From the NCBI RefSeq assembly GCF_048403405.1, contig NZ_CP183135.1: 64,000 nucleotides of DNA. One strand, written 5' to 3'. A program made the translations under genes and the position numbers. This DNA comes from Escherichia coli (GTDB lineage: Bacteria; Pseudomonadota; Gammaproteobacteria; Enterobacterales; Enterobacteriaceae). The notes below the pieces were generated by a model, which did no database searches, was not told where the DNA came from, and saw nothing but the letters and a program-made list of their open reading frames with translations. Below, in pieces: positions 54,968 through 55,021 of the stretch. The stretch's first letter is position 1; each line of letters opens with the position of its first letter.

Positions 54968-55021
54968 ATGCGTTTGCAGTCATTACAGTCTCCATGACGA
55001 CTGTAATGACTGCAAACGCAT
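54968..55021. repeat. perfect 23-bp inverted repeat (hairpin, 8-nt loop) between convergent crcB and shiF
   Basis: ATGCGTTTGCAGTCATTACAGTC ... GACTGTAATGACTGCAAACGCAT; no adjacent T/A run. Confidence 0.6.

Follow-up and report, generated by a model that had tools for sequence, protein, structure and literature searches.

In this study, we examined a long hairpin in a 64,000-nt stretch of Escherichia coli DNA (contig NZ_CP183135.1; the whole stretch is called the window below), which lies between the convergent genes crcB and shiF, 63 nt past the crcB stop codon. Its perfect 23-bp stem is probably the product of a template switch that acted on an imperfect hairpin in the end of a decayed Tn3-family fluoride-resistance transposon, and no dedicated function was seen for it. 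This mutational origin (template switching), which is supported by relatives of the transposon, was omitted from the earlier note on this DNA, where the hairpin had been suggested to be a bidirectional terminator, a recombination or protein-binding site, or the footprint of a small inverted-repeat element.

The arms of the hairpin are complementary at 23 of 23 positions (100%) around an 8-nt spacer, and the stem continues for three more pairs beyond one bulged T (Table 1). The description given in the earlier note, a perfect 23-bp stem with an 8-nt loop and no flanking T run between convergent genes, was thus confirmed: no T run is found on either side, and crcB on the plus strand faces a major facilitator superfamily transporter gene on the minus strand (55282-56475), which is the shiF of the ColV literature and is divergent from iucA. 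Folding, a check which that note had put forward, gave an RNA minimum free energy over 111 nt of -46.1 kcal/mol for the plus strand and -47.9 kcal/mol for the minus strand (z = -8.1 and -7.8), and none of 200 shuffles was equally stable. As single-stranded DNA, the hairpin folds with -28.7 kcal/mol (z = -10). By chance, a random sequence of 64 kb would hold about 1.6e-8 hairpins with a perfect 23-bp stem; the runner-up perfect hairpin in the window (loop of at most 20 nt) has 13 bp, and with up to 3 mismatches the arm sequence does not occur elsewhere in the window (0 expected). A sequencing artefact was ruled out, as hundreds of complete plasmids, sequenced independently of each other, have the hairpin in identical form. 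In one 2006 record (pAPEC-O2-ColV, NC_007675.1, 96295-96737; L141) the right arm reads GACTGTAATGACTAAACATTACC and lacks two GC dinucleotides, both of which are present in all other copies examined. This difference looks like a sequencing compression artefact in the hairpin and not like a true variant.

Four independent lineages of this transposon right end formed the base of the comparison. At equal distance from the tip of the terminal inverted repeat, an imperfect hairpin is present in L138 (an Enterobacter hormaechei plasmid locus), in L104, L105 and L062, and in clade A, a group of Tn3-family transposons with other cargo. In the window, the structure reads GGTATGCGTTT (left outer stem), GCAGTCATTA (left interior), CAGTC (inner stem), TCCATGAC (loop), GACTG (inner stem), TAATGACTGC (right interior) and AAACGCATTACC (right outer stem), with a minimum free energy of -44.5 kcal/mol. 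L138 has the same outer stem (GGTATGCGTTT/AAACGCATTACC) and the same inner stem (CAGTC/GACTG), with the interiors CATTGGCATT on the left and TAATAACAGT on the right and the loop TCTATGAC (-24 kcal/mol). In L104, L105 and L062 the left side is that of L138 with one base different, the inner stem and the right outer stem are the same, and 9 nt of the right interior are deleted (-17 kcal/mol); their loop is TCCATGAC, as in the window. Clade A keeps the outer stem, with GGTGTTGCGTT on the left and AACGCAGTACC on the right. Its left interior is CCGTTGTCCCT, the left CAGTC is missing, the loop is CCATGAC and the right interior is AAGTGGCTG(C/T) (-16 to -18 kcal/mol), the full sequence being GGTGTTGCGTT-CCGTTGTCCCT-CAGCCCCAC-CATGAC-GACTG-AAGTGGCTG(C/T)-AAACGCAGTACC. 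In the L005 type, the left outer stem was removed by a 24-nt deletion (-10.7 kcal/mol, z +0.4).

In the ancestral-type hairpin, an unpaired interior of 10x10 nt accordingly separates the outer stem GGTATGCGTTT/AAACGCATTACC from the inner stem CAGTC/GACTG, which closes an 8-nt loop, and the hairpins of the relatives reach z values of only -1 to -3.4. The window, L104 and L138 have the basal bulge in common, and thus the outer stem was inherited and the copied tract lies within the 23 nt. Between the clades, the outer stem differs by one wobble-to-Watson-Crick change and a bulge; no compensatory pairs were found among the few distinct sequences. Every lineage carries an indel of its own in or beside the structure, which in the window is a 21-nt deletion immediately 5' of the stem. 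In a global alignment, the left flank of the window was not significantly similar to that of clade A or L005 (p = 0.73 and 0.12, respectively), and the homology of this flank was later settled by the closer relatives L104 and L138.

The evidence for a template switch comes from the two interiors. The left interior of L104 is identical to that of clade A at 7 of 10 positions (P ~0.004 by chance), and the left interior of the window matches L104 or clade A at none (0/10). At a background identity of 87%, the latter has a probability of P ~1e-9 under point mutation. The right interior of the window is identical to that of clade A at 7 of 10 positions, and likewise to that of L138 by reading of the alignment, and was therefore inherited. 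The left interior of the window, GCAGTCATTA, is the exact reverse complement of the right one, TAATGACTGC. The change is a clustered block in one arm, and the opposite arm is unchanged. The anchors on both sides of the copied tract, CAGTC/GACTG on the inner side and TGCGTTT/AAACGCA on the outer side, are already present in L138 and L104. A block change, an exact complement and pre-existing anchors are together the defining outcome of quasipalindrome template switching.

The following course of events can be proposed. The ancestral right end would have been a quasipalindrome with a 10x10 unpaired interior between outer and inner stems. A single intrastrand template switch would then have occurred in the lineage that came to ColV-type plasmids, during copying of the minus strand across the region in right-to-left direction. 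The growing strand would have folded back on the inner 5-bp stem, copied at least 10 nt of its own new right arm and returned to the proper template at the outer stem. In this way, the 10 unpaired bases of the left arm would have been overwritten by the complement of the right arm, resulting in the 23/23 stem. The transposon context, the imperfect hairpins of the relatives, the block change in one arm and its exact complementarity to the other are seen in the sequences. From these we infer the switch itself and its strand, minus-strand synthesis because the left arm took on the sequence that pairs with the right one. In E. coli, template switching is described to make quasipalindromes "perfect or more perfect" by fold-back of the nascent strand and self-copying (PMC7202029). 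Perfect inverted repeats are enriched in proteobacterial genomes, and template switching was proposed to maintain them in Proteobacteria (PMC5941160).

Several points speak against a template-switch origin without function. The switch is known from its end products only, and its polarity rests on few taxa (four lineages). A simple two-switch model does not explain the 21-nt deletion 5' of the stem; one more complex event or two separate events are possible. Selection could have fixed the perfect version, which is identical in ~820 complete E. coli replicons. However, the whole module is 99-100% identical among ColV copies and, therefore, the invariance of the hairpin has little weight. Finally, long hairpins without a U tract can affect transcript ends, and convergent transcription from the crcB side and from shiF comes together at this very site; a functional role is therefore conceivable.

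The hairpin is subterminal and is placed 33 bp inward of the right terminal inverted repeat of a decayed, 1,626-bp Tn3-family element (53468-55093; Table 1). An inverted-repeat search found its ends as a 41-nt pair with 90% complementarity (53455-53495 and 55066-55106). Within the terminal repeats, the first 28 nt are identical except for one base and are followed by a 1-nt indel; read inward, both ends start with GGGGGG(C/T)GAGGGCCAGTGATGTAAAAAA and are alike over ~60 nt. Presumably, these repeats resemble those of Tn3 and Tn1000. The element is flanked by the 6-bp direct repeat AAAATT, and a 5-bp duplication would need one end to be shifted by 1 nt. In the relatives, the flanking sequence diverges right after the CCCC tip of the right inverted repeat. 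In plasmids, the right end gave more than 1,000 matches that overlap or adjoin genes annotated as Tn3-family transposases. At the other end, 53464-53772 matches the end of the L105 tnpA with 89.7% identity. The transposase of the window element is present as a C-terminal pseudogene stub only; that of L105 is encoded by two open reading frames (ORFs) matching NF033527 (784 and 276 bits). A resolvase gene is absent from the window element, and a serine recombinase is present in L105 and L138. Because the resolvase is absent, the window element is a decayed non-autonomous derivative. For the empty target site, the joined flanks (53268-53467 plus 55100-55299) gave no contiguous match in PLSDB. The flanks themselves (53280-53467 and 55100-55281) are a patchwork of short fragments that are 82-88% similar to IS21-like (ISEc12 istA) and IS3/IS2-family elements.

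Table 1. Coordinates (window positions) of the hairpin and of the transposon remnant around it.
Feature	Position	Strand	Sequence or content
Left arm of the perfect inverted repeat	54968-54990		ATGCGTTTGCAGTCATTACAGTC; the central 10 nt (54975-54984) are GCAGTCATTA, the derived block, probably overwritten
Spacer/loop	54991-54998		8 nt, TCCATGAC; ancestral
Right arm	54999-55021		Ancestral transposon right-end sequence; interior TAATGACTGC at about 55004-55014
Full stem-loop	54965-55025		With 3-bp basal extension (GGT 54965-54967 paired with ACC 55023-55025) and bulged T55022
Left terminal inverted repeat (IRL)	53468-53507	+	GGGGGGCGAGGGCCAGTGATGTAAAAAACCACGCTAAGAG
Right terminal inverted repeat (IRR)	55054-55093	-	GGGGGGTGAGGGCCAGTGATGTAAAAAATACGCCAAGAGG, read inward
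Left flanking direct repeat	53462-53467		AAAATT, read from sequence
Right flanking direct repeat	55094-55099		AAAATT, read from sequence
Tn3-family transposase C-terminal stub (pseudogene)	53513-53761	-	Reads out towards IRL; Prokaryotic Genome Annotation Pipeline (PGAP) annotation of an identical plasmid stretch
Fluoride operon remnant	53771-54908	+	Truncated eno (to 54181), small ORF (54178-54450), crcB (54522-54902)
Transposon right-end module	54909-55093		Holds the hairpin, a subterminal block in common with the left end, and the right inverted repeat

The right-end module is collinear with L104, L105 and L138 and does not derive from the donor fluoride cluster. From the loop to the tip of the inverted repeat (54992-55093), it is found with ~85% identity in the clade A transposons, which carry tnpA-tnpR-SIR2-DUF87/HerA. 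The clade A transposon is widespread (L007, 1-6104; also L003, L006, L008-L010 and numerous metagenome loci) and has the final ~100 nt of the right end in common with the fluoride transposon. It occurs on IncX3 and large plasmids of Enterobacterales as well as in Shewanella, Rahnella and Cedecea assemblies. Its SIR2-DUF87/HerA-like ATPase cargo is apparently anti-phage. The shared right end suggests cargo swapping on a common backbone.

The cargo of the window element (53771-54908) has its closest donor-like match, with 87% identity, at a Rahnella variigena locus whose genes run ppaC-usp-eno-orf-crcB. In the window, eno has lost its 5' part, and ppaC, usp and the fluoride riboswitch are deleted. 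The metagenome locus L105 is collinear with the entire window element (87-90% identity). It encodes the Tn3-family transposase (NF033527), the serine recombinase, Usp, a Mn-dependent pyrophosphatase and a complete enolase, matches the fluoride riboswitch model (RF01734) with 45 bits and has the same right end; its region collinear with the window crcB lacks a separate annotation. L138 likewise combines tnpR-ppaC-usp-eno-crcB with the same right end. At the same ColV position, a long version with the riboswitch, ppaC, usp and full eno is present in 16 PLSDB plasmids, for example L135 and L136 (E. coli pEC244_2 and pB188_F). The short form arose by a 4.2-kb internal deletion with a 2-nt overlap at 53771/53772, by which the promoter and the riboswitch were lost. 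Since the long ColV version has the identical perfect hairpin, the perfect stem predates this deletion. Judged by these comparisons, the ColV segment known as 'truncated enolase-crcB' is the stump of a Tn3-family transposon with a riboswitch-controlled fluoride-resistance operon. Neither this identity nor the origin of the hairpin was found described in our literature searches, by which absence cannot be proven. A perfect inverted repeat of 12 bp with a 17-nt spacer was observed ~30 nt upstream of the crcB start codon (54453-54464 and 54482-54493; TTAACAATATCAG.../...CTGATATTGTTA); within the fluoride operon, it might serve as an internal attenuator or operator. To grow in human urine, uropathogenic E. 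coli needs its chromosomal crcB (PMC10936160), and this requirement might explain the retention of crcB on plasmids of extraintestinal pathogenic E. coli (ExPEC).

The search for copies of the hairpin covered the window itself, 5,426 complete E. coli genomes, 72,556 plasmids, GTDB representative genomes and metagenomes. Wherever it was found, the hairpin sat at one locus per replicon, and every copy is orthologous; the two BLAST places per record reflect the palindrome matching itself on both strands. Of the 780 PLSDB plasmids that match the crcB-shiF intergenic stretch, 776 have it at 99% identity or more, as do the ~820 complete E. coli replicons mentioned above. The carriers are almost all IncF ColV-type plasmids with sitABCD and iucABCD. 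In chromosomal shiF alleles (92% identity), homology ends ~8 nt past the shiF stop codon and, therefore, the stretch from shiF to crcB lies outside the shiF-iuc module. One metagenome contig with the long ColV version (L130, 503-556, orthologous to window 54968-55021) carries the loop GTCATGAC in place of TCCATGAC. This change of two adjacent bases (TC>GT, window 54991-54992) results in a 54-nt perfect palindrome without spacer (-47.8 kcal/mol). The full-length variant is absent from the 5,426 complete E. coli genomes and may be a second template-switch step or an assembly artefact.

We considered whether the hairpin is instead a selected RNA element, namely a U-tract-independent bidirectional terminator or a 3'-end stabilizer, which would insulate the crcB side from shiF or shield the inverted repeat from cargo transcription. 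Its location shortly after crcB and between convergent genes, its high stability on both strands and the imperfect hairpin at the same place in three of the four right-end lineages would fit such a role. Transcripts, too, probably arrive from both sides. In published quantitative reverse transcription PCR (qRT-PCR) data for pS88, the iron-responsive induction, under iron limitation as well as in vivo, falls from sitD (140x in vivo) over eno' (19x) and orf (10x) to crcB (6x), and shiF is induced on the opposite strand. The decay from sitD to crcB (window 52422-54902) suggests read-through from the sit promoter into the orphaned crcB. Thus, the hairpin is probably transcribed from both sides, on the crcB side probably via sitABCD read-through, since the promoter and riboswitch of the operon itself are deleted. 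The literature searched held only such qRT-PCR abundances for this locus, and neither Term-seq nor 3' rapid amplification of cDNA ends (RACE) data.

However, the anatomy does not support the terminator that the earlier note had proposed. The tails, TTACCTGACA on the plus strand and ACCATGGAGC on the minus strand, have no U tract, a consensus terminator scan did not call the hairpin, and Rfam 15 gave no match at gathering score. The only sub-threshold matches were to eukaryotic miRNA precursors (28 bits vs 200 and 22 vs 43), as is expected for any long hairpin. The hairpin is therefore not a canonical intrinsic terminator. The ancestral versions, moreover, are weak, one lineage is without the left outer stem (the L005 type), one arm was replaced as a block without compensatory covariation, and a different indel in or beside the structure is found in each lineage. 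The identity among ColV copies reflects recent common descent and not constraint. Taken together, a selected RNA element is rather unlikely. The comparison of relatives, the single locus, the Rfam search and the search for a U tract gave no sign of selection for any function, and the region behaves as a structural-mutation hotspot and not as a conserved element.

With a template-switch origin, the most likely present-day effect of the stem would be incidental: transcripts running across it would form a stem-loop of about -45 kcal/mol (z about -8 to -11) that has no U tract. A perfect helix of 23-27 bp would be expected to impede 3' exonucleases or to serve as a substrate of RNase III, and the stem-loop could block the former or be cut by the latter. 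A further possibility, which we regard as decidedly unlikely, is that the imperfect hairpin is a functional module of the right end, either insulating the inverted repeat from cargo transcription or acting as a hotspot for cargo exchange (fluoride operon vs SIR2-HerA), and that the perfected ColV version is a U-tract-independent bidirectional RNA 3'-end or RNase III element. If true, the perfected stem would separate iron-regulated sit read-through into crcB from the convergent shiF and would affect gene expression on the virulence plasmid.

Alternatively, the perfect hairpin could be ancestral and the imperfect versions of the relatives could have decayed from it. Palindromes are prone to deletion, and relatives do carry deletions (9 nt in L104, 24 nt in the L005 type). 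Yet the left interiors of L104, L138 and clade A are alike (7/10) and the window shares none of these positions; independent decay would not converge on one unpaired sequence. The right arm of clade A, furthermore, persists without its partner. Such a decay is highly improbable.

Barely credible is a palindromic site for a dimeric protein or a site-specific recombination site of the transposon or plasmid, the second suggestion of the earlier note. The perfect dyad symmetry and the place near the tip of a transposon would suit it, but the arms are far longer than typical half-sites, and the symmetric interior is absent from the orthologs that keep transposase and resolvase (L105, L138) and, more generally, from all relatives with working transposition genes. 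The window element is itself decayed and has no resolvase or other partner gene. Since the stem interior is not conserved and each lineage carries different indels, this suggestion remained unsupported. An attC, dif or cer-like site was also rejected, as the sequence is without a GTTRRRY-type boundary or an 11-6/8-11 Xer core.

Almost negligible, finally, is the chance that the hairpin is a small palindromic mobile or repeat element (a miniature inverted-repeat transposable element (MITE), or one like the repetitive extragenic palindromic (REP) sequences), the excision footprint of one, or the native crcB terminator of the donor, even if it follows crcB in a region crowded with pieces of mobile elements: none of the databases searched contained a second locus, and the right arm is homologous to transposon ends with unrelated cargo. 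As to a repeat family, which the earlier note had proposed to look for by BLASTN, searches with the arm and with the 54-71-nt unit gave orthologous copies only and no recurrence at other loci. The link to a mobile element in that note is real, but in the form of a subterminal feature of the transposon; the hairpin is neither such an element nor its footprint. The donor terminator was ruled out, because the R. variigena homology ends at 54908, 6 nt past the crcB stop codon, and is followed by a different sequence.

The inferred origin resembles quasipalindrome template-switch mutations (Ripley model; the E. coli thyA hotspot and the lacZ quasipalindrome reporters), in which an imperfect repeat is likewise perfected by a clustered change in one arm with pre-existing anchors. 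Unlike in the reporters, the hairpin described here is natural and fixed, and its history comes from lineage comparison. It also differs from the usual cases by a copied tract of at least 10 nt across a 10x10 internal loop and by a 23-bp stem, which is much longer than the short repeats usually analyzed. With intrinsic terminators it has in common a stable stem-loop just 3' of a stop codon and between convergent genes; unlike these, it lacks a U tract and has a stem that is only moderately GC-rich and far longer than typical. The element around it is similar to Tn3-family passenger transposons and their decayed derivatives, such as TIMEs (miniature elements with Tn3-derived inverted repeats) and mobile insertion cassettes, in its ~38-40-bp GGGG... 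inverted repeats and in a putative target duplication, which is short and rich in A and T; a tnpA remnant that is read outwards across one inverted repeat, and cargo between resolvase and the other, are further common features. Non-autonomous Tn3 derivatives are known in Enterobacteriaceae, with TIMEs of ~200-300 bp (PMC13367494). In contrast to TIMEs and MITEs, the window element has 1,626 bp and bears genes, and its cargo is what is left of a fluoride-resistance operon and not a gene for antibiotic resistance. No second copy of it and no evidence of current mobility were found. The riboswitch-controlled operon ppaC-uspA-eno-(gpmA)-crcB of Enterobacter cloacae FRM was experimentally characterized (PMC5533749); its genes, their order and its upstream fluoride riboswitch recur in the long ColV version and in the intact relatives. 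The operon described here differs from it in being transposon cargo that was cut to eno'-orf-crcB without promoter and riboswitch, and in having a small unannotated ORF in place of gpmA.

Other inverted repeats were also observed in the window. A 24-nt inverted repeat with 96% complementarity and a 19-nt spacer (55851-55874 and 55894-55917) lies inside the shiF ORF. Such a repeat is uncommon in coding sequence and may have arisen by another template switch. At 45813-45841 and 45849-45877, a 29-nt inverted repeat with 83% complementarity and a 7-nt spacer was seen. Sequences related to it occur at 45655-45677 and 47040-47062 and at 45632-45652 and 47089-47109, and together they may represent a small inverted-repeat family in that part of the window.

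A quasipalindrome perfected by template switching inside a decayed Tn3-family passenger transposon is known in kind; the proposed origin of this hairpin and the identity of the ColV segment are new as descriptions. Template switching has reportedly been proposed in a further study as a creator of RNA hairpins. The hairpin described here offers a clean natural example of a template switch that makes a long perfect hairpin in one step, for which ancestral-type states survive in L138, L104 and clade A. For annotation, this means that a perfect hairpin between convergent genes is in itself no sufficient ground to call a terminator; in the present case, the comparison with relatives favours a mutational origin inside a transposon end. 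For the ColV-type virulence plasmids of ExPEC and avian pathogenic E. coli, 'truncated enolase-crcB', a core part of these plasmids, is reinterpreted as the remnant of a fluoride Tn3-family transposon. More generally, strong RNA and DNA hairpins can arise without stepwise compensatory evolution.

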